Virus record (IMG/VR): IMGVR_UViG_3300044216_001436
Location: 1 to 24,184 of that record
Length of the DNA stretch: 24,184 nucleotides
DNA from: a virus
Lineage: Duplodnaviria > Caudoviricetes
Reading direction: 5' to 3' (one strand)
Shown piece after piece: positions 3,349-20,178 of the stretch (position 1 is its first letter; each line of letters begins with the position of its first letter). The position numbers were made by a program, and so were the translations under genes. The notes under the pieces are model-generated. The model made no database searches. It saw only the letters and a program-made list of their open reading frames with translations, and was not told where the DNA came from.

Positions 3349-5862
3349 TTAATTTGGTGAAATATCTCCTGGTTTCCACCAATACTCTTGTTGAGTGTCC
3401 CTTAAATAACTATTAATTAATCTGTTTCTTCTTCGTTGTACGTCAGGGTCAATTAAATTTGCAACTCTATCTGCTATAAGTCTTTCAAAGGCTAATCTTA
3501 AATACCATATAGAACTACCAGGCGTGTACTGTTTTAACATTCTAATTATTTGATTTCCTGGGTCTAATTTATCACCTCTTATTGCTTTCATTAGTTGTCC
3601 TGGTCCTAATTTATATAAATTTTCTACTAATCCTGCTACTGGTCCCATGGCAGTAGAAGTCATTGAACCACCAAACCTATTATGATCTGCAAGGAAAAAA
3701 TCACCAAAAATACCTAGTCCACCACCTGTCATAAGCATTCTAGTAAAATATTCTCCTGGATTATTTTTTATATAATCACGAGAAGTTGGCTCTCTTCCTT
3801 TTGTTAATTCTCTTAACTCAAATGCTAGTGAACCCATAATCGCAGAAGAAATAATTAAGTCTGCAAAGTAACCAGCTTTTGCTTTTCCTTGTAACCTCAT
3901 TGCTCTATTTAAATGTGTAAACACAAGTGTAAATGCAAATGATTTAAACATTAAACCAGATAATGCTGCTTCTCCAATAATCGTACCAGGTTTTGCTCTT
4001 GCTAAAGCTAAAGCTTTAAATTTTGCGCTTGTTGAAGGTACTGCAAATTCAGTTTCACTTGATATAAGATCAAACATTTTTGTTGCCAAATTTTCTGCTT
4101 CATCTGCAGTAATATCTGTTCTTGCTCTTATATCGTCTGGTCTTAAAAATGTAATATCTTGACCTGCAACTTTAGGGTCATCAATACCTGCATCGTATAA
4201 TTTTGTTTTTCTAATTACGTTCCAACTATCGCTATCAATACCATAACGTTGAAACATACGTTTTGTACCAGGTAATAATTCATCAAATGTTTTATTTACA
4301 TTGTCTGAGAAAAAACCCATCAACTCCATACCAAAACCCCAACGACCGCCTTGTGTTAAGTCTGTCAAACCAGAAAGTTTTAAAGTTGCATCTGCAAATC
4401 TTCTAGTTATCTCAGGAGCTTTTGTATCTAAAGTATATCTTTGTGAAACATGTGCAACAGTTGCAAAACTTTCTGCAATCAAACCACTTCTTAAAGCAAC
4501 TTTACTCATTGTCTTATCTTTTTTTATTGCTTCACCTAAAATTTTTGTGGCTCTTTGTGCTTGTCCAAATGCGCCTATGTCATTGAATTGTGCTGTAATT
4601 CTTCCAAAGTTAAAATCTCCAACAGCAAGGATTGATGCTGAACCTAAAACAGAAGAAGTTATAATTTGTCTTATACCAGCCATAGTTCTTGCAAATGGTA
4701 TATTAGCAGGAATAGTTAATTGACCTTTAAAAAAAGCAAAATAATTATCTAATCTATCTCTAAAATTTGCAATTCTATTTTCTTCTGATTGTCTAAAAAT
4801 ACCTTTTCTTTTTAAATTTCTATTTTCAACACCAGATATTCTTAATTTATCTTTTATGTATCTATGGGTAAACTCAGGATTTGGTCCTAATCTTTTTAAC
4901 ATTGCTGTATCACGAGCCATTGATTTTATATGACCCATCATAATGCTAAATATATCACCTTCACCAAAACGTTCAGCGTATTGCAGCCAACTATCTGCGT
5001 CTTTAAAAATTAAAAATCTATGATCTAATCTTTTGTTTGATAAACTTGTGCCTTTTATTGAACCAGGTTTTAGTTTTTTAACACCCAACTCTGAAATATC
5101 TTGATAAACTTTAGCTAATACTAATCTTAAACTTTCTTCTGTAAACGGAAGACCAGTTGAATTGTCAATCATTCTTCCAATATTTAATTTTGGTATTACA
5201 AATTCTATCCACTCATTTACATCAGCTTTTCTTACTTTTATAAAGTCATGCAACATTGGAATTCCCCAATCTTTTAATTTAGGAATACGTCCACCATATT
5301 TATTAAATCGTAACCTCATTCTCTCAGCAGCAAGGGTCCATGACTTTGCAAATTCGTTAGCACTTTCATTTGCAGACTTACCATTAAATAAAGCTCTAAC
5401 AACGTCCATCATCGTAGCTTTCTTTTTTTTATTAATGTAGCCACCAATAGACGGTCTAAGTTCTGCCATTAGCTCATCTAAATATTTTGTAGCAAGAGCT
5501 TCTTCTTGATAGATTAAAGTTTCTAGTGATGCATAAGTTGCGTTTTCACTTCTAACATAAATAGCTTCAGCTGCTTCAAATGTATCTGCTTCACCTTTTG
5601 GGTTTCTGTAAGTTTCTAATTCTAAATCAATTCTTTTAAGATTTTGAAATTTAAGTCTATTGACATATTTTTTGTGTGCTGCATCAAACTTTAATTTATT
5701 GTATGCATCTTTTGCAGCTTTACGACTTGCTTCAGTTGGAGTTAATCCTTCACCAATATATCTTCGTTCTAAATTTTCTATAAGTTCTAGTTGTTCTTTT
5801 TGATTTGTTTCTGAAATTTTACCTTCATCAAATGCATTATTAACACAATTTTTATAACTCAT
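3349..5862 (-). CDS. Internal virion (ejection) protein, gp16-like C-terminal type
   Basis: About 837 aa. Start moved to ATG 5862 (ATGA overlap with the upstream stop, AAGGA upstream). C-terminal Gly/hydrophobic segments (GGGLGIFGDF, PGSSIWYLR); last gene of the ejection cluster. Confidence 0.75.
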   Translation of the reverse strand: MSYKNCVNNAFDEGKISETNQKEQLELIENLERRYIGEGLTPTEASRKAAKDAYNKLKFDAAHKKYVNRLKFQNLKRIDLELETYRNPKGEADTFEAAEAIYVRSENATYASLETLIYQEEALATKYLDELMAELRPSIGGYINKKKKATMMDVVRALFNGKSANESANEFAKSWTLAAERMRLRFNKYGGRIPKLKDWGIPMLHDFIKVRKADVNEWIEFVIPKLNIGRMIDNSTGLPFTEESLRLVLAKVYQDISELGVKKLKPGSIKGTSLSNKRLDHRFLIFKDADSWLQYAERFGEGDIFSIMMGHIKSMARDTAMLKRLGPNPEFTHRYIKDKLRISGVENRNLKRKGIFRQSEENRIANFRDRLDNYFAFFKGQLTIPANIPFARTMAGIRQIITSSVLGSASILAVGDFNFGRITAQFNDIGAFGQAQRATKILGEAIKKDKTMSKVALRSGLIAESFATVAHVSQRYTLDTKAPEITRRFADATLKLSGLTDLTQGGRWGFGMELMGFFSDNVNKTFDELLPGTKRMFQRYGIDSDSWNVIRKTKLYDAGIDDPKVAGQDITFLRPDDIRARTDITADEAENLATKMFDLISSETEFAVPSTSAKFKALALARAKPGTIIGEAALSGLMFKSFAFTLVFTHLNRAMRLQGKAKAGYFADLIISSAIMGSLAFELRELTKGREPTSRDYIKNNPGEYFTRMLMTGGGLGIFGDFFLADHNRFGGSMTSTAMGPVAGLVENLYKLGPGQLMKAIRGDKLDPGNQIIRMLKQYTPGSSIWYLRLAFERLIADRVANLIDPDVQRRRNRLINSYLRDTQQEYWWKPGDISPN

Positions 5863-8285
5863 TGACAATCCTTCAATCTTTCTAGTGTTTCATCTAATTG
5901 TTTTTCTTCATCTAACAAATCTTTTTTAGTTGTAGTTTCAATAATTTCTTCACCAGTATTTTCGTCTAATCTTATTCCTGTAGGAATTTCTGTATTGTCA
6001 GGCAAAGTATCTGTAATAGTTTGATCTATATTTTGTACTTCGTCTTCAAATATTTTTGTATCGTTGTGTGGGTCAACAAATTTTTGCGGAACGCTTATGT
6101 CTTCTGGTTCCGTTTGTTGTTTTGATACTGCTGGTGTCTCAATCGGAGCATCGTTAGATGCGATTGGTCTGCTAGAGCTAATCCCATCAAAATCGCCTCG
6201 TTGGTTTGCTCTTTCGATAGCTTCGAGGAAGAGTTTTTGTCCTTCTGATTTTTTTCCTTGTTTAAAGATTTTAGCTGCGTTGTTGAGGTCGTCTGAGAGA
6301 GTTCCGACCCTGTTTGCGATTGTGTTGATTTTGTCGATAATTTTACCACTTTCAATAACCTCCTTTTCATTTCTAGCTTTGTTTAAAACATTACCAGCTT
6401 TTTGTAGTGTTGTATCACCTTCTGATGCTGTTTTAAATATTGATTTTATTTTTTTTAAATTTCTCGATGCATAATCTAATAAAGATGCACGCTCTAAAAT
6501 TAATGCTTCTTCTAGCTCTTCTGTACCAAATAAACTGTCAGTTGTTGTTTTTACTGTAGGTAAATTATTAATTTGTTCTAAAGCTGATTGCATTTCACCT
6601 TTAGTATTAAATTTTCTTTGATACAAAGCACCCATAACATCTTTATGAATAGCTTTGTTTGTAATTACTTCACCAATCATAGCTGCAAGGTCTTCATCAA
6701 CTTTACCGGATAAATAAAAACCCCAGGCATCATCACTTAAATTTTTTAAGCCAACAGCATTTTGAAATAATTTTAATCTTGTTGGAATACTTTTTTTTAA
6801 ATTTTCTACATTTATATTAAAATTTTTTCTTAAAACTCTTGCTGCATCTGTTGCGGTTCCAGTATTATTTCTTAAATTTATCATTAAACCAGAAAGCAAA
6901 GCATCTTCTGGTGTATGACCATCTGCTTCTTTAAAAACGTGAGCTAATAATTTTGTTTTTTGACCTTGTTTTTTTAATCTTTTTGCAAGACCTAATCGTT
7001 GGTGTCCATCAACAATTGCTTTTCTTCCGTCTCTAAATTCAAAAACTAAAACTGTTCCTGCAGAGGGTTGGTCCCATTCTGTAACATTTTGTAATTTATC
7101 TGAAACACCTCTAACATCACCATCTGTTTTATATTGAAAAGTTTGCGCATCAAATTCTATTTCTTCTGGGTCAAATGTTTTTATAAAAATATTATCTGTT
7201 TTATATAATTCATCTGTTTTTATAGGATTTACAGGTTTTTCGTCTAAAATTTTTGGTGGTTGTTCATCAACAATTGATCTTGCTGCAGTATCAATTCTTT
7301 GTTCATGTTCTAATTTTGCAGCTTGTGTTTCTACTAACGGATTATCGTCTGTTAATACTTCTTTTGTATCTGCTTCTGGTATTTTTTCGTTTTTGTATTT
7401 AGGATTTGTATTTACTGCTTTGCTATAAATATCATTTATAGTTTTGTTTGGCAGTTGTTGTAATTTATTTTTTAAAAAATTATAACCTTGTGCTGATAGT
7501 TTAACACCTTTTATTGCACCCTTTCCTGCACCTAAAAATGCAGGTCCTAATAAAGCTCCACCAGCAAATGCGTAACCAACATTTTTTGCACCTGTAACAA
7601 AACCAGCATCGTCAAAGCCTAAATCTTTTCTGTATTTTTGAGATATAACTTGTACTCCAGTTTCACTAGCTGCTGCTAAAATACTTTCTATTTTACCGAT
7701 TTTCCATGCTGCACCTAAAAAAGTTTTAGGTGTTGAATACATAAATCCTATTGGAACAGTAGATAATACTAAAGGGTCAACCATAGCTCTACCAGCTATA
7801 CCTGCAAAACCTCCAAATTTACCTGCTCCTGTAGCTCTTTCGTTTATATCTTGAAATTCTTGCAAAGCATTTTTTGCATCAATAGATATTTTTTTTGCAA
7901 TTTGGTCTGGAGTTCTTAATGAGTTAGCATCTAAAATAGAACCAATCTCAGGATTTTCATTTGTTAATTTATCTATTTGTAAATGAAAATCTGATAATCT
8001 ATTTTTTTTACTTACAAATCCGTCAATGTTTGTTTCGGCAAATGTACTAATTGTATCTTCTTCTAAAGGATTTACAAAGTTTGTATGACCATTTTCTGCT
8101 AGCAAAGATACAACATCACCATAAGCATCATATAAATTTTGATTTTTTGCAGTTGATACTTCTGATTTTGACATAAAATTCCATGCTGCTTTTGCATTTT
8201 CTGTAAAAGATGTTCGTTCACCTTTTGCCCAGTTTTGCTCAGCAAGCGGATTTCTATTTTCGTTCTCGTCTAAAAAAATTGTCAT
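5859..8285 (-). CDS. Internal virion (ejection) protein with a ParB/Srx-like domain
   Basis: 808 aa in the ejection cluster; Gly/Ala-rich membrane-like N-terminal third; IVDGHQR ParB-type motif near 6996-7016. Confidence 0.72.
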   Translation of the reverse strand: MTIFLDENENRNPLAEQNWAKGERTSFTENAKAAWNFMSKSEVSTAKNQNLYDAYGDVVSLLAENGHTNFVNPLEEDTISTFAETNIDGFVSKKNRLSDFHLQIDKLTNENPEIGSILDANSLRTPDQIAKKISIDAKNALQEFQDINERATGAGKFGGFAGIAGRAMVDPLVLSTVPIGFMYSTPKTFLGAAWKIGKIESILAAASETGVQVISQKYRKDLGFDDAGFVTGAKNVGYAFAGGALLGPAFLGAGKGAIKGVKLSAQGYNFLKNKLQQLPNKTINDIYSKAVNTNPKYKNEKIPEADTKEVLTDDNPLVETQAAKLEHEQRIDTAARSIVDEQPPKILDEKPVNPIKTDELYKTDNIFIKTFDPEEIEFDAQTFQYKTDGDVRGVSDKLQNVTEWDQPSAGTVLVFEFRDGRKAIVDGHQRLGLAKRLKKQGQKTKLLAHVFKEADGHTPEDALLSGLMINLRNNTGTATDAARVLRKNFNINVENLKKSIPTRLKLFQNAVGLKNLSDDAWGFYLSGKVDEDLAAMIGEVITNKAIHKDVMGALYQRKFNTKGEMQSALEQINNLPTVKTTTDSLFGTEELEEALILERASLLDYASRNLKKIKSIFKTASEGDTTLQKAGNVLNKARNEKEVIESGKIIDKINTIANRVGTLSDDLNNAAKIFKQGKKSEGQKLFLEAIERANQRGDFDGISSSRPIASNDAPIETPAVSKQQTEPEDISVPQKFVDPHNDTKIFEDEVQNIDQTITDTLPDNTEIPTGIRLDENTGEEIIETTTKKDLLDEEKQLDETLERLKDCQ
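6095..6349 (-). CDS. Nested +1-frame gene, 84-aa Ser/Thr/Gln/Lys-rich protein
   Basis: Perfect SD AAGGAGGT (6365-6358), 8-nt spacer, GTG at 6349-6347, TAA at 6097-6095. Host-frame codons switch to C-ending over this interval. Confidence 0.6.
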   Translation of the reverse strand: MVKLSTKSTQSQTGSELSQTTSTTQLKSLNKEKNQKDKNSSSKLSKEQTNEAILMGLALADQSHLTMLRLRHQQYQNNKRNQKT

Positions 8286-10444
8286 TATCCAGCCTCATCA
8301 GAAAATTCTGGTAATTCATTCGGTCTTTTTAATTCTAAAATTAAATCATCTTTAATTAAATTTAAATTAATTTTAAAATAATCTACGTTAGTTAATTTTC
8401 CATCTGGTAAACCATTTAATACTGGAATTAAATTAGGCTCATTGTCTGTAGGGTGATCTCCTAAAAAAACAATATATTTGCCATAACCAACACTTACAAA
8501 ATGTGGAGGTTCATTTTTAAAAATATCTAAAGGTTTTCCTTCAGTATTAATTGCAATTTTATTGTTTGCAGCCTTTTGTAATAAATTTGGATTGTTATTT
8601 AAAATTTGTTCAACCTTAGAAAAATCATCTTGTTTAATAAAATTAGGAACATGTACTTTATAACCTCTTGATGTTTCAGCAGTACCACCAACTTTTTTGC
8701 CGTCTGGTCCGTTTTCTTGACCAATAGCTTCTTGTAAAGCTTCTTCATATAAACTTGAATTAAAACTACCACTATCAGCTTTTTTACCTTTTTGATCGAA
8801 TATTTTTTTTGTATAAATATAATCTGCAATATTTACTGCGGCTGTAAATGTATTAGGATTATCAATGAATGCAGTTTTGTATTCTGAAACAATTGCAGAA
8901 TATTGTACATTGCCTGATGGTACAGTTGCTTTAAAACCATCATCAGAAAGTTTACGACCTATCAAAGCATTTTTAACTACTTCGTTATTATTTGTAATTA
9001 ACGATAACCCACCAAGATAACCAAAAAATTGACCATTTTTATTTTGTCCTAGTTCAGCAAATGCTTCATCAGATTGTGAACCAAATGCTAAACTCATTGT
9101 AGAAATAACTCTTTCTATATTTGCTGGGTCTTTTTCACTATCAAAATAATTTGTAAGTTGTGATCGTTCATCATTAGTAAAAAATCTTTTTGGAGCATTG
9201 TTTTCTAATGAAATTAATGTTCCAATCGAAACTCTTTTTTTACCAATCCCAACAAATTCAGATATATCACCACCTTGTAAAACATCTGATATAGGTAAAC
9301 TATCAGGGTCATAAAAAGATAATTTAGATGCAGTACCTATAGGGTCTTTTTCAATTTGATCTACAAAATTTGCAGTATATGATTTTATAAAATCAGAACG
9401 TAATTTTTTATCTCTACTTGTATTAACACCTTGTATTCTATCTTGCTGTTCAATATCGTCAGAGGTTGAAATTAAATTATTTAATTCTTGTCGGTTTTGT
9501 GTTTTTAGAAATAATAATAATTCTCTTTTAACATTAAGGTCTTGCAATCTTTGTAATAAAATTGGGTCATCAGAATTTTTTGCAAGCTCTAACATACTTG
9601 CATATTCTTCATTTGTTACATCTTCAAAATTTTTTGTAATTCTATTTTCTTTTTCTTTTAAAGATGTTTTTAATATTTGTTTATTTTCTTTTGCAACACC
9701 AACTCTATATTTTTCTATAGTTTGAACATCTTTTGCATCTAAATATTTTGATTTTTTTGCATAAGAAATTCCTGCTGTTCTATCTTGTGAAACTAATCTT
9801 TTTGCATAAGCAATATCTCTTTCTTTAAACCAAGCATTTTTTAAAGCTTCAGTATTCGCTCCATATAAAGTTTTTACTTTTTCTGAACTCCAATAATTAT
9901 TTGCATCTTGTTCTGCAAGCATTTGTAAATCAGTTGTTTCTGCATAAACAAAATCTTTAGATAATTTATTTTGTGATGAAAGCTCTAAACCTTGTGAATG
10001 AATTGCAAAATTTTTATTAGCAGAATTAGTTACAGAAATGCTATCTTTTAAAAAATGTTTATTAGCAACAGACTTAAATAAATCTTTAGTAAAATTGTGT
10101 TTGTAATTTTGTGTTAAACCTTCAAATGCTTTGTTGTAACCATTTTGATAAAATGCTTTAGCTGCATCTGGGTCTGTCATTTTTGATGCTTCTAACTTAA
10201 CTTCAGATATACCTTTAAAATTTTCGTTACCTTCTATCAACTCTCTTTCTTTTTCTAAAACTTCATTTTCTGATTTTCTTATTTCATATTTTCTAAAAAG
10301 TTGTGTAGCAGTTTTTCCGGCTCCACTTATAGCGTTACCTATTTGTGTTGCAGTAGCCTGGGATATTCTCATATTAGGTGTAGTCTCAACTGCTGAAGTT
10401 GTATCTGTAGGTCGTATGTTAGGTGAGTATAATTTTATAGCCAT
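8285..10444 (-). CDS. Internal virion (ejection) protein, gp15-like position
   Basis: 719 aa, helical composition, directly after the gp14-like gene; assigned by synteny. Confidence 0.65.
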   Translation of the reverse strand: MAIKLYSPNIRPTDTTSAVETTPNMRISQATATQIGNAISGAGKTATQLFRKYEIRKSENEVLEKERELIEGNENFKGISEVKLEASKMTDPDAAKAFYQNGYNKAFEGLTQNYKHNFTKDLFKSVANKHFLKDSISVTNSANKNFAIHSQGLELSSQNKLSKDFVYAETTDLQMLAEQDANNYWSSEKVKTLYGANTEALKNAWFKERDIAYAKRLVSQDRTAGISYAKKSKYLDAKDVQTIEKYRVGVAKENKQILKTSLKEKENRITKNFEDVTNEEYASMLELAKNSDDPILLQRLQDLNVKRELLLFLKTQNRQELNNLISTSDDIEQQDRIQGVNTSRDKKLRSDFIKSYTANFVDQIEKDPIGTASKLSFYDPDSLPISDVLQGGDISEFVGIGKKRVSIGTLISLENNAPKRFFTNDERSQLTNYFDSEKDPANIERVISTMSLAFGSQSDEAFAELGQNKNGQFFGYLGGLSLITNNNEVVKNALIGRKLSDDGFKATVPSGNVQYSAIVSEYKTAFIDNPNTFTAAVNIADYIYTKKIFDQKGKKADSGSFNSSLYEEALQEAIGQENGPDGKKVGGTAETSRGYKVHVPNFIKQDDFSKVEQILNNNPNLLQKAANNKIAINTEGKPLDIFKNEPPHFVSVGYGKYIVFLGDHPTDNEPNLIPVLNGLPDGKLTNVDYFKINLNLIKDDLILELKRPNELPEFSDEAG

Positions 10445-10445
10445 A

Positions 10446-10895
10446 TTATATAAATCCTAATGTTGATGCGTCTGTTAATAAACTTGATGCAGCATTAAAA
10501 TAACCTGCTCTTTTGGCTACACGTCCTCTGTATCTTTCAACATTGGCTGCAGCTCTTTGCATAACTGCTGCGTTAAGTTGTTGTTCTTTTCTTACTTCTG
10601 CATTGTATTTTAGCATGTCTCTATCAACATCAACTAAGTTTTGATTTTCGACCACAATATCAAATGCAGTACCAGTTCCTAATTCTACACCTGAGCCTGC
10701 TAATTGATTTTTTAATGTACTGTCTTGTCTTTCAGCATAATAATTAAATCTTGGTAAATCGTATTGTTCGTAAACTTGATAACCTTGTTTTGCATTTTGT
10801 TCTTTTACTAATGCATCACGGTCCATTAATGCAGCGTTATAATTAGCTGCTTTCTTTGCTGCGTTAGCTGCTATTATACTTCCAAAAAAACTCAT
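10446..10895 (-). CDS. Internal virion protein B (gp14-like)
   Basis: 149 aa, Ala-rich, with a central AGSGVELGTGT motif typical of small podovirus ejection proteins; synteny. Confidence 0.72.
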   Translation of the reverse strand: MSFFGSIIAANAAKKAANYNAALMDRDALVKEQNAKQGYQVYEQYDLPRFNYYAERQDSTLKNQLAGSGVELGTGTAFDIVVENQNLVDVDRDMLKYNAEVRKEQQLNAAVMQRAAANVERYRGRVAKRAGYFNAASSLLTDASTLGFI

Positions 10896-11368: not shown

Positions 11369-13091
11369 ATATTGCTAAAATAGTCATGGGTAAGGGTTGT
11401 TCTTGTTTTACTAAAACAAAACCATCGGTCCCATAATCACTTGGAAACTCTGTCTCTTTATCACCAGTAAATAATGGAACTGGGTCTGACATAGCAGCAG
11501 AGCTATCTCTAAACGGTATTTCGTCTAAATTACTTTCGTTAGGTCCTACTTTTGCACCAACTGTTTCAAAAAATCTAACTGTAACATCGTAAATTCTTTT
11601 TGTTTTAGTTTGGTCGGTACCTCTTGCGCCTTCATCTAGTCTCATTGTTTGTAGAGATGAAACATAACCTAAACCAACTTTTGCAGTTGTTGCAGAACGA
11701 TCTAAAGTTATTTGACCAGAAGATACAACACGGTCTGGGTGAGTTGCACCATTAACTATAACTTTTACTGTTTCACCTTCTAAATGAGATAAACCAGATA
11801 AAGTTGTAGTTGCAGAACCAGAATAACCTAATCCACTATCTACATAATGAAATGTTGTTAGTGAGGAATTAAAATCATACGGTGTCAAATATTCTACATA
11901 TTTTTTTGTTGAGCCGTTAATTGTTCTTTCAACAATAACATAAACTTGATCTTCGCTTGTATCTATATCTATTACTGCAACTGATTTACATTTGGTATTT
12001 GTTCCGCCAAAATCATGTGAATGCCAGGCAACAACGTCTTGCAAACGATTATAAGTCATACCTACTAAACTTCCGTCTGTTCTTACACACCATACAACAC
12101 TAAATGGTTCTTGTTGATAATCCATTTGTATTATTCCTGACGATGATATGTGTTCAGATAAAATAGTTAAATCAGGAGCTAGGTAACCATCACTATCGAA
12201 GTTATAAGCAAGTTCTCTTATTTTTCTTTTTGCTCTTTGTAAAAATATTGTAGCGTTACCAATTGATAAAGCATCTACACCAGCTGAACCATAGTTAGAT
12301 TGTTTTCTAATATTTAAATTTGTTGGTGTTATAGGATTGTCTGTTGCACCTGACGATACTGTAAACTCCCCTCCAGTTGTCATCACAATTAAAGTTCTTG
12401 TTGCTTTTATACTTTCTATTGCGTTGACCTGATTAGATGCGATTGTATAAATCATAGCATCTGCATCTGCGGTACCTGTAGTAAAATTTTCATAATCACC
12501 AGATTTAGAAAAAAATAAAGTTTGCGGATTATTAGTTGTGCCTGCAAAAACTAAACGTTGTTCAAAAAAACTTACACACTTTGGATTGTTATTAGTACCA
12601 CTTAATTGATGTGTAGATGATGTTTCTGTAAAATTAACTGTTGTTAAAGTCCAAGATGTATGACCTGTTCTTGATAATTTTCTAACAGCGTGGTTCTTAT
12701 GACATAGATACATAACGTCTGCACTTTGCGCGAACTTAATATCAAATACTTCTGTATGAAGGTAAGGTGTAGATATTTCAAATGCTGCACCTCCGGAAAC
12801 AATTTGACCACTATCTTTGTAAAATCTTATGTACTGGTCGCCAAACTCTAAAATGTAAGTTTGTGTTGTAGAAAAACTAAATGGTATTAGTCTTGTATTG
12901 TTTGCTGAATTTTTTACTTCAGATATAAAATGCGTTCCAGGTCTTCTAGTTACTGGACCATGAGGTTGTACAACAAAATTATTTATTAACGTTCCTGCAG
13001 AAAAATATTTTGAAAAATCTGTACGACCTTCCATTCGTGGTGATAATTCACCTGCTGTAAAACTAGGAACTGATAATAATGCTTTTGGCAT
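11340..13091 (-). CDS. Tail tubular protein B / nozzle (T7 gp12-like)
   Basis: 583 aa; SFTAGELSP, GPVTRRPG, FFEQRLVFAG and QEQPLPMTILAI motifs. Confidence 0.88.
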   Translation of the reverse strand: MPKALLSVPSFTAGELSPRMEGRTDFSKYFSAGTLINNFVVQPHGPVTRRPGTHFISEVKNSANNTRLIPFSFSTTQTYILEFGDQYIRFYKDSGQIVSGGAAFEISTPYLHTEVFDIKFAQSADVMYLCHKNHAVRKLSRTGHTSWTLTTVNFTETSSTHQLSGTNNNPKCVSFFEQRLVFAGTTNNPQTLFFSKSGDYENFTTGTADADAMIYTIASNQVNAIESIKATRTLIVMTTGGEFTVSSGATDNPITPTNLNIRKQSNYGSAGVDALSIGNATIFLQRAKRKIRELAYNFDSDGYLAPDLTILSEHISSSGIIQMDYQQEPFSVVWCVRTDGSLVGMTYNRLQDVVAWHSHDFGGTNTKCKSVAVIDIDTSEDQVYVIVERTINGSTKKYVEYLTPYDFNSSLTTFHYVDSGLGYSGSATTTLSGLSHLEGETVKVIVNGATHPDRVVSSGQITLDRSATTAKVGLGYVSSLQTMRLDEGARGTDQTKTKRIYDVTVRFFETVGAKVGPNESNLDEIPFRDSSAAMSDPVPLFTGDKETEFPSDYGTDGFVLVKQEQPLPMTILAIYARLELYDT

Positions 13092-19484: not shown

Positions 19485-19749
19485 TGTGTCTGTGTCTGTG
19501 TGGGTGGTAGTCCCAATATATATATATATCTACACGCGCGACCACGCCCAGGGGTATAGTCCCTCTTTATTTACGCAAAAAACGCTAGCTGTCATGTAAC
19601 AGATCAGGCGCAGCGGTTACCATAGCCGATGACAATTGTTATTCTATCTACTTAATAGTTTAAATTGTGTGTTGGTTGTGTGTTCTCTGTCAATCGAACT
19701 CCATAACACACGCGCGGAACTGCGTCCCTGCGTATAAAAATACCAACCC
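19485..19749. repeat. Non-coding repeat-rich region, candidate packaging/terminus site
   Basis: TGTGTC tandem 19485-19502; (AT)7 at 19516-19529; ACACGCGCG at 19532-19540 and 19708-19716; TTGTGTGTT at 19665-19673 and 19676-19684. Confidence 0.45.
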
Positions 19750-20004
19750 TTATGACTTCTTATGTCTTGCAGCAAACTTCGCTGCTGCTTCTTTAGAACC
19801 GAACCCCCATTTTTTAAGAGCAAGTTTTAATCTTGTTGGTCTTCCTTTCTTATCTTTTAACGGTCCCTTAACTTTACTGAAGCGCGCTGCAAAGCTGACC
19901 CTCCGAGGGTTTGTTCCTTTACTTACTGGAGCCTTGACCCCAAACTTTTTACGTCCTGCAGCATTTAATCCGCCTTTTGGATTTTGGAACCTTTTAGCGA
20001 CCAT
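19750..20004 (-). CDS. Basic protein, DUF6321-like
   Basis: 84 aa, 26 K/R; NPKGGLNAAGRK...RRVSFAARF...RLKLALKKWG pattern (family recalled, not searched). Confidence 0.75.
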   Translation of the reverse strand: MVAKRFQNPKGGLNAAGRKKFGVKAPVSKGTNPRRVSFAARFSKVKGPLKDKKGRPTRLKLALKKWGFGSKEAAAKFAARHKKS

Positions 20005-20178
20005 TTACTTTTTTTTCTTTTTTGGAAAGCCTGCCTGCATATTTTTATATGCTTTTCTACTTATAGAACTCTTTGATTTAGGACGAGACGTGCCAGCCTT
20101 TTTTCTTTTATTAATATTATAATAAAGACCCTTACGCGCCATCTTTCCTGACTTTGTTCTGTGATAGCCTTTTTTCAT
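20005..20178 (-). CDS. Small basic protein, 57 aa (MKKGYHRTKSGKMARKGLYYNINKRKKAGTSRPKSKSSISRKAYKNMQAGFPKKKKK)
   Basis: Translated by hand. SD AGAGGT upstream; the stop abuts the next ATG; 22 K/R and no acidic residues. Confidence 0.8.
   Translation of the reverse strand: MKKGYHRTKSGKMARKGLYYNINKRKKAGTSRPKSKSSISRKAYKNMQAGFPKKKKK

Follow-up and report, generated by a model that had tools for sequence, protein, structure and literature searches.

A conserved gene overprinted in the ParB-fold virion protein gene of an HTVC010P-like phage, and a possible antidote role of its product

The window analysed here is a stretch of 24,184 nucleotides from a virus of the Caudoviricetes (IMG/VR record IMGVR_UViG_3300044216_001436, positions 1 to 24,184), and all coordinates refer to it. 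Its minus strand carries an 808-aa (amino acid, aa) gene for a predicted internal virion protein, termed the host gene below, and a second gene of 84 codons is nested in the +1 frame of this host gene. The nested frame is almost certainly a real gene. In relatives it is open beyond neutral expectation, its initiation signals are conserved, and selection acts at the level of the nested amino acids. Its product represents a conserved, unannotated protein family, and we lean towards the reading that it is the cognate inhibitor (antidote) of the ParB-like module encoded by the same gene.

The nested gene in the window

The nested gene was delimited by the following features.

6358..6365, minus strand: Shine-Dalgarno (SD) sequence AAGGAGGT of the nested gene, read from the sequence
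6095..6349, minus strand: nested +1 gene, GTG at 6349 and TAA ending at 6095, 84 codons (84 aa), 8-nt spacer to the SD
6218..6349, minus strand: nested aa 1-44, rich in Ser, Thr, Gln and Lys, variable, predicted to be disordered (predicted local distance difference test, pLDDT, under 52 per block)
6101..6214, minus strand: nested aa 46-83, a single predicted amphipathic helix of 38 residues (pLDDT 96-97 in aa 51-80)

The SD AAGGAGGT, the 8-nt spacer, the GTG start, the 84-codon +1 open reading frame (ORF) and its translation had been proposed in a first-pass annotation of the window, and all of them were reproduced in the sequence check. This site holds the only AAGGAGG on the minus strand of the window. 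An alternative upstream in-frame ATG at 6370 (91 aa, seven additional residues) is not preceded by an SD. The stop-free +1 stretch of 95 codons was the longest alternative-frame stretch among the 14 genes examined (next longest, 77). In the overlap, 26 of 86 host codons ended in C, against 2 of the 80 codons immediately ahead of it and 42 of 723 in the remaining gene; the earlier hand count had been similar, at about 25 of 85 and 2 of 80. When the host gene was resampled from its own codon usage, 0 of 4000 sequences kept an open +1 frame, and 5.7 +/- 2.2 codons with C at the third position were expected where 24 were found. A promoter scan yielded 7 sites compared to 4.6 +/- 2.7 in shuffled sequences, with no sign of an internal promoter. 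Contigs from RNA runs were sparse, scattered at a depth of 2-3, and uninformative as to the nested gene. The overlap is also covered by a 136-codon antisense ORF (6064-6474, plus strand), which is likely a shadow; ORFs in the similar frame of relatives end variably.

Conservation and selection on the nested frame

Host-alignment scans resulted in 160 loci, 159 of them with the motif of the host module. With the window, 124 loci were distinct, and 116 distinct loci, window included, were long enough for the analysis. Host identity across these 116 loci was 31-100%, and clustering at <70% identity gave 24 clusters. Over host aa 646-725, the +1 frame was free of stops in 114 of 116 loci and the +2 frame in 0 of 116. 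An open +1 frame was found in 22 of the 24 clusters, compared to 1.18 expected from synonymous-codon resampling. The density of +1 stops per 100 codons was 0-0.4 over host aa 650-729 and 4.2-12.2 elsewhere. The two exceptions were a short form with a later start (L055) and a locus with a misaligned end, in which a 90-codon frame is intact (L076).

An ATG or GTG was present in 112 of 116 loci, either at the aligned codon (94) or one codon earlier (18), with nested lengths of 82-102; in three further loci the start was located five codons earlier, behind AAGGA. SD matches of at least 4 nt preceded 19 of 22 cluster starts, compared to 109 of 790 other +1 ATGs. Conservation of the start codon, taken alone, speaks weakly for a gene, because host Asp, Asn and Tyr codons readily give ATG: other columns show ATG in 18-19 of 24, with a neutral probability of up to 0.9, which has to be set against the gene reading.

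A programmed +1 frameshift, by which a shortened host protein would terminate in the nested helix, would also use the open frame, and three proteins (P0145, P0153 and P0164) pass from the host into the nested frame. These three are one-member clusters, each with a different junction; moreover, the SD and start are conserved, and in most close loci a +1 stop is located within three codons before the start. A frameshift is therefore regarded as highly improbable. P0145, P0153, P0164 and P0325 are singletons that change from one of the two frames to the other; indels or assembly errors are the probable cause.

The third-base test covered positions at which T and C encode the same host residue without either of them creating a +1 stop. 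In the tail half of the window's nested gene, NTC:NTT was 11:2 and NAC:NAT was 7:0, compared to 0:21 and 4:27 before the overlap, and this choice of C yields nested Ser or Thr instead of Leu, Phe or Ile. Under the helix, NCT:NCC was 74:4 and NGC:NGT was 99:10 in the 24 representatives, yielding nested Leu and Ala. Over host aa 700-725, conservation was higher in the +1 frame (mean BLOSUM 1.10) than in the host frame (0.32). The third-base choices thus follow the nested protein, which argues for a real gene under protein-level selection. Selection for Ser and Thr, as initially suggested for the nested protein, was found in its N-terminal half, whereas the C-terminal half is selected for Leu and Ala.

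If the frame were no gene, it would reflect the codon usage of the host gene or a recombined patch of higher GC content. GC-rich relatives indeed keep such frames open cheaply, with a neutral probability of up to 0.64 in single loci. This explanation is refuted by the frame, SD and codon statistics and by the occurrence of the helix outside the overlap (see below), and a GC-rich patch is ruled out because the bias reverses between tail and helix, following the structure of the nested protein. It is hardly credible. The alignment of homologs, which had been proposed as a check in the first-pass annotation, thus showed the open frame, SD and start to be kept; scattered stops, loss of the SD and a high-GC patch were not borne out. 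Together with the selection on nested amino acids, these results support the overprinted gene postulated there.

Properties of the nested protein

The nested protein has a net charge of +8, and representatives range from +1 to +11. The region of aa 1-44 is partly missing in short forms and is replaced in the fusion proteins described below; the helix of aa 46-83 is the conserved functional part. The structured parts of the two products alternate, because the nested tail overlies the last helices of the host module and the nested helix overlies a host linker.

None of 54 members contains Cys, and none exceeds a KD19 of 1.6 (maximum 1.14), i.e., there is no membrane segment. An o-spanin of the Rz1 type was ruled out by the missing lipobox Cys (0/54) and the low maximum KD19, and a holin or other membrane lysis protein by the absence of members above 1.6. 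KorA-type partners of KorB are DNA-binding repressors. A clamp lock of this kind did not fit the nested protein either, as the model comprises disorder and one helix with no folded DNA-binding domain.

No family was found for the nested protein in Pfam, NCBIfam, PADLOC, the PDB sequences or the ESM Atlas, and a comparison with PHROGs yielded no match apart from weak, scattered ones (best E 0.006). The nested alignment offered no conserved stretch for a DNA scan. Nested genes and toxin-immunity pairs are already known. No paper describing this helix family or overprinted antidotes in polyvalent virion proteins was found in a literature search that covered subscription papers thinly; ParB, overlap and toxin are absent from the main text of a genomics paper on HTVC010P-type phages (PMC8477408).

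The host gene and its ParB-fold module

The host gene and its neighbours comprised the following features.

5859..8285, minus strand: host gene, 808 aa, predicted internal virion (ejection) protein with ParB-fold module
6864..7175, minus strand: ParB/Srx-fold nucleotide-binding core, about aa 371-474, from the AlphaFold model, Foldseek and VIA
6996..7010, minus strand: DGHQR motif (GxxR-type), aa 426-430
6198..6500, minus strand: long C-terminal helices of the host module, about aa 596-696 by DSSP of the model, the last two overlain by the nested disordered tail
5862..6173, minus strand: acidic host tail, aa 705-808, net charge -17; in relatives, the zeta or RelA/SpoT cassette sits inside it, near aa 759
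3349..5868, minus strand: downstream virion structural gene, 839 aa, phrog_684
8285..10895, minus strand: upstream genes, i.e., a 719-aa gene without family and a 149-aa internal virion protein gene (phrog_418)

The carrier is an HTVC010P-like phage, and the host gene encodes a ParB-fold polyvalent virion protein. The segment is low in GC, and its capsid protein is 65-67% identical to capsids of HTVC010P-type pelagiphages. The host gene follows the tail genes and the phrog_418 internal-virion gene (tail-tube/internal-virion order) and precedes the phrog_684 virion gene; the putative assignment as an ejection protein is based on this gene order. None of the cultured pelagiphage records matched the 808-aa protein. 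The 20 record matches belonged to Ruegeria phage 45A6, Dunaliella viridis virus SI2 and P-SCSP1 cyanophages.

The ParB domain named in the first-pass annotation had no match in Pfam, but the structural model resembles ParB, Noc and KorB. In the AlphaFold model (aa 371-704), the module consists of a ParB/Srx core, a helical domain, a beta-hairpin and long helices. Foldseek returned ParB/Noc matches with E-values of 1.7e-4 to 7e-4, the core aligned to VIA PadC with Z 7.9 (root-mean-square deviation 3.0, 90 aligned), and the likeness to KorB/ParB/Noc spans about 200 columns. DGHQR was invariant in 46 aligned homologs, which had been chosen by DGHQR. By its model, the module thus has the predicted ParB/Srx fold together with the GxxR arginine. 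It also fits a DdrB-like ParB in its late-gene virion context and polyvalent mosaic, a label that refers to context and fold. The nested gene does not lie just downstream of the ParB domain, as had been stated; it starts about 170 residues beyond the NTPase core (aa 371-474), over the last helices of the module.

Host aa 373-693 (6207-7169) matched two families, the portal family phrog_21 at its C-terminal end and the giant phrog_10691 over part of its length; hence, the ParB module is also fused to portals and giant proteins.

Distribution of the nested gene

In most relatives, an enzymatic cassette, either zeta/AAA_33 or RelA_SpoT, is inserted after the overlap, whereas the host gene of the window lacks both. 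Counted over complete genes, the nested gene was kept with zeta in 46 of 46, with RelA type 1 in 29 of 32 (strict start rule; the remaining 3 of 32 start at -5), with type 2 in 23 of 23, and in 6 of 7 genes without a cassette; the second RelA-like type has no Pfam match and was assigned by sequence appearance. The nested gene is kept whichever cassette follows and therefore travels with the ParB module. As in immunity-type genes, it is a small gene located directly after an effector domain and moving with it.

The nested frame ends just ahead of the cassette insertion point, a position that would suit a cis-acting translation element by which internal initiation or ribosome traffic tunes the downstream cassette and the peptide is incidental. 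Selection on individual residues of the helix, retention in cassette-less genes and the helix in free-standing proteins argue against it, and it is considered very unlikely.

Among 47 distant modules (3 phage records and 44 genome loci), 19 had an SD, a start and an open frame (+2 control, 0), and 11 matched the nested profile, a set that overlaps the 19. The nested gene also accompanies the ParB module in proteins of 2000-3900 aa of other phages, with short forms that have their own SD. A quick tree was used for topology only, with presence labels taken from the frame scoring of the distant modules. Presence and absence of the nested gene followed clades. Branches associated with sphingomonads and roseobacters have retained it, in many cases as a form of 55-77 codons that begins behind a second SD, whereas a Hyphomicrobiales-associated branch, the Gastranaerophilales loci and P-SCSP1 have lost it. 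The nested gene is thus old and widespread, and not obligatory. In short forms of 55-68 codons (L161 of Ruegeria phage 45A6, L164, L165, L170, L176, L178 and L186), the second SD and start lie inside the conserved RKG..SD motif of the host. The candidate short form of Ruegeria phage 45A6 has 56 codons and is preceded by an SD.

These data also bear on an independent late protein, such as a DNA-binding core protein, a lysis accessory protein or a host effector, that became nested by historical accident. The positive charge of the representatives (+1 to +11) would agree with such a protein. Its following of the ParB module into very large proteins, the loss of the basic tail in fusions, and the lack of Cys and membrane segments in all 54 members, which excludes spanin and holin types, make this unlikely.

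Further nested frames beside the cassettes

Stop-depleted alternative frames were also found next to the cassettes, i.e., +1 just downstream of zeta (16 clusters), antisense upstream of RelA type 1 (11) and antisense downstream of type 2 (9). The antisense domain of RelA type 1 was present in 32 of 32 type-1 genes and in 0 of 46 zeta genes. It is encoded by an ORF of 82-85 aa (L008, 4122-4379, minus strand; L020, L023, L106, L125 and others), a candidate antitoxin. The zeta +1 ORF (45-76 aa; L004, L029, L043, L054, L061 and others) has a tail-plus-helix appearance and is a candidate zeta antitoxin. The antisense ORF after the second RelA-like cassette was observed in L038, L041, L050, L077 and L157, and also in L172, L179, L191 and L198. 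The L050/L077-type ORF is fused to the helix in protein P0160 and is present as well in loci without the helix gene.

The helix in free-standing proteins

When 1.84 billion proteins were searched with a profile of the nested alignment, 48 of them matched. In P0163, P0160, P0161 and P0155, the helix is placed behind domains that are antisense-encoded and cassette-linked in the phages. The type-1 domain, used as a query, matched 108 proteins from several databases, mostly of 104-115 aa, of which 82 contained both domain and helix; since the first row of the profile was a fusion, 82/108 is biased, cannot be taken as a frequency, and carries accordingly less weight for the antidote reading. For the helix in these fusions, hhalign gave a probability of 94%. 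The fused helices were closest to nested helices of RelA type-1 phages, i.e., of the same cassette type, and the helix of P0160 was closest to that of L050, which carries the other domain of P0160 in antisense. In the phages, domain and helix are convergent on opposite strands, and their fusion therefore requires an inversion. The fusions join two parts in one chain, each of them at most a candidate immunity domain and neither of them catalogued as such.

P0163, P0175, P0177, P0220, P0234, P0265 and relatives form an abundant marine family of antisense domain plus helix, with source contigs of up to 89 kb on record. In P0155, P0158, P0169 and P0327-P0333, the helix is at the end behind other small domains, some of the proteins being multi-module and one originating from a metagenome-assembled genome of a Xanthobacteraceae member. 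The N-terminal domain of the P0330-type fusions had no nested-frame match among the loci compared.

The helix-less type-1 domain stands alone in two cellular genomes, G707 and G519. The copy in G707 (L287, 10504-10773, minus strand) is part of a two-gene island adjoining tRNA-Pro (11523-11599), and the copy in G519 (L288, 10019-10581, minus strand) is part of a candidate pair beside a restriction-modification locus. Among viral contigs, two scans for fusion genes detected no relative, and two others yielded 22 and 19 loci, none spanning the helix; no fusion gene was found among phage and plasmid records. In overlapping samples of whole genomes, the fusion profile matched 0 of 301, 0 of 187, 2 of 401, 1 of 401, 0 of 15 and 0 of 338, two of the hits being without helix. 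The helix profile gave two marginal matches in 341 genomes (E about 3-5e-4).

Proposed inhibition of the ParB module and alternative functions

According to the proposed mechanism, the C-terminal helix of the nested protein would bind and inhibit the ParB-like module of the virion protein encoded by the same gene. During phage production this would keep the module silent, its activity being confined to the next host once ejection has taken place. Free ParB module might be harmful through nucleoside triphosphate (NTP)-dependent DNA binding or cleavage, or through NTP depletion. Both proteins would be made from one late transcript, and the small protein would be left behind at packaging or ejection. 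Overprinting may have arisen for want of room: where an effector domain is embedded within a long polypeptide, there is no gap between genes in which its antidote could be placed.

A co-fold of helix and module scored 0.42 (runs 0.42, 0.46 and 0.01), compared to 0.00 for the best of three controls, with a contact agreement of at least 58% and a partner pLDDT of at least 53. In the calibration, 18 of 157 solved complexes passed at 0.60 or under, and 2 of 215 mismatches passed, both at that level, and the support is therefore weak. Co-folding had been suggested in the first-pass annotation along with an inhibitor, and the result of 0.42 vs 0.00 points faintly in this direction. The comparative data, i.e., retention with all cassettes, partner frames and fusions, favour the inhibitor as well, and the chaperone or separate virion protein named there in its place are less probable. 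A small gene next to every enzymatic module, together with free-standing and fused copies in other places, gives the pattern of effector-immunity pairs folded into one gene.

Several findings count against an antidote. One of the three co-fold runs scored 0.01, and the basic tail is no DNA mimic. Of the 47 distant ParB modules, 15 with intact motif have at least two stops in the frame and 11 more are ambiguous; the 8-9 kb loci of these modules contained no free-standing helix gene. The cassette-linked small ORFs match no known family, and their putative antitoxin role is derived from position. The fusions are known as proteins only.

A morphogenetic role would explain part of the same data. 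As an assembly chaperone or docking tag, the helix would bind the host protein (or the portal or core) and fold it or load it into the prohead without any toxicity being involved, and in the fusions it would tow a cassette-binding domain to that protein. Co-occurrence, fusions and the co-fold are shared by this explanation; the long host helices could pair with a single helix, and the basic nested protein faces an acidic host tail. However, entire clades have the ParB module but not the nested gene, and protection accounts more easily than morphogenesis for the free-standing fusions and for the partner domain in cellular genomes. We consider a chaperone or tag rather unlikely.

The antidote reading can be extended to all modules. 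In the polyvalent ejection genes of abundant marine podophages, each injected module (ParB, zeta and two RelA/SpoT types) would then have its own overprinted antidote, in sense or antisense and hidden from annotation, and cells or rival elements would have captured, inverted and fused these antidotes as bivalent inhibitors, an undescribed kind of defence. This extension is possible but doubtful.

Comparison with known systems

MuF toxins of phages are reportedly of the polymorphic toxin-immunity kind. Compared with polymorphic toxin pairs, the nested protein has no sequence match to known immunity families. Embedded spanin genes are known from Rz/Rz1 and T7 18.5/18.7. As in Rz/Rz1, a small gene is wholly nested in the +1 frame and its product is thought to partner the host product; unlike Rz1, the nested protein has no lipobox Cys, signal peptide or membrane segment, and the host is no i-spanin.

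The ParB-fold toxin ToxB was shown experimentally to be neutralised by iToxB, the product of the downstream gene, according to the report (10.64898/2026.05.05.722872), and ParB folds are described to bind varied NTPs (PMC12704722). As in polymorphic toxin-immunity pairs, ToxB/iToxB among them, a small gene follows directly after the effector domain, and swappable cassettes each have a small partner gene. A ParB fold can thus be a toxin with a cognate inhibitor, a likeness that is drawn by description. In contrast to ToxB/iToxB, the partner is overprinted in the effector gene (+1 or antisense), and the carrier is an internal virion protein of a podophage. KorA and TrbA, the clamp-locking partners of KorB (PMC13768133), are likewise small proteins controlling a ParB-type protein, whereas the nested protein is predicted to be a disordered tail with one helix and the host is likened to KorB by its model.

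Phage polyvalent proteins with DdrB-like ParB and RelA/SpoT domains (PMC5512222) share the ParB/Srx fold, the conserved Arg, the late virion context, the mosaic structure and the proposed injection; the word 'overlapping' is absent from the main text of that account, in which no nested partner genes are described. The free-standing chains that join the helix to at least one cassette-linked small domain resemble the fusions of unrelated immunity domains in polyimmunity proteins as presented in PMC3482391; they differ in that the parts are no catalogued immunity domains and both come from overprinted frames on opposite strands.

If true, the antidote reading offers an explanation of why the producer cell tolerates polyvalent effectors that are carried in virions, namely antidotes hidden in the effector gene. 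It would also predict that the zeta and RelA/SpoT domains of phages have cognate inhibitors of their own and point to marine proteins of 104-145 aa as captured anti-effector genes. With the nested gene, a phage type near the highly abundant HTVC010P pelagiphages gains a conserved, unannotated protein family, and the role of its ParB-like module becomes accessible to experiment.

Further observations in the window

The second-longest alternative-frame stretch of the window is a 76-codon +1 ORF with a TTG start (8599-8829, minus strand) within the 719-aa gene. A GC-richer region was found at 19667-20122 (plus strand) and 19750-20004 (minus strand), where a very basic minus-strand ORF of 84 aa lies under an antisense ORF of 151 aa.

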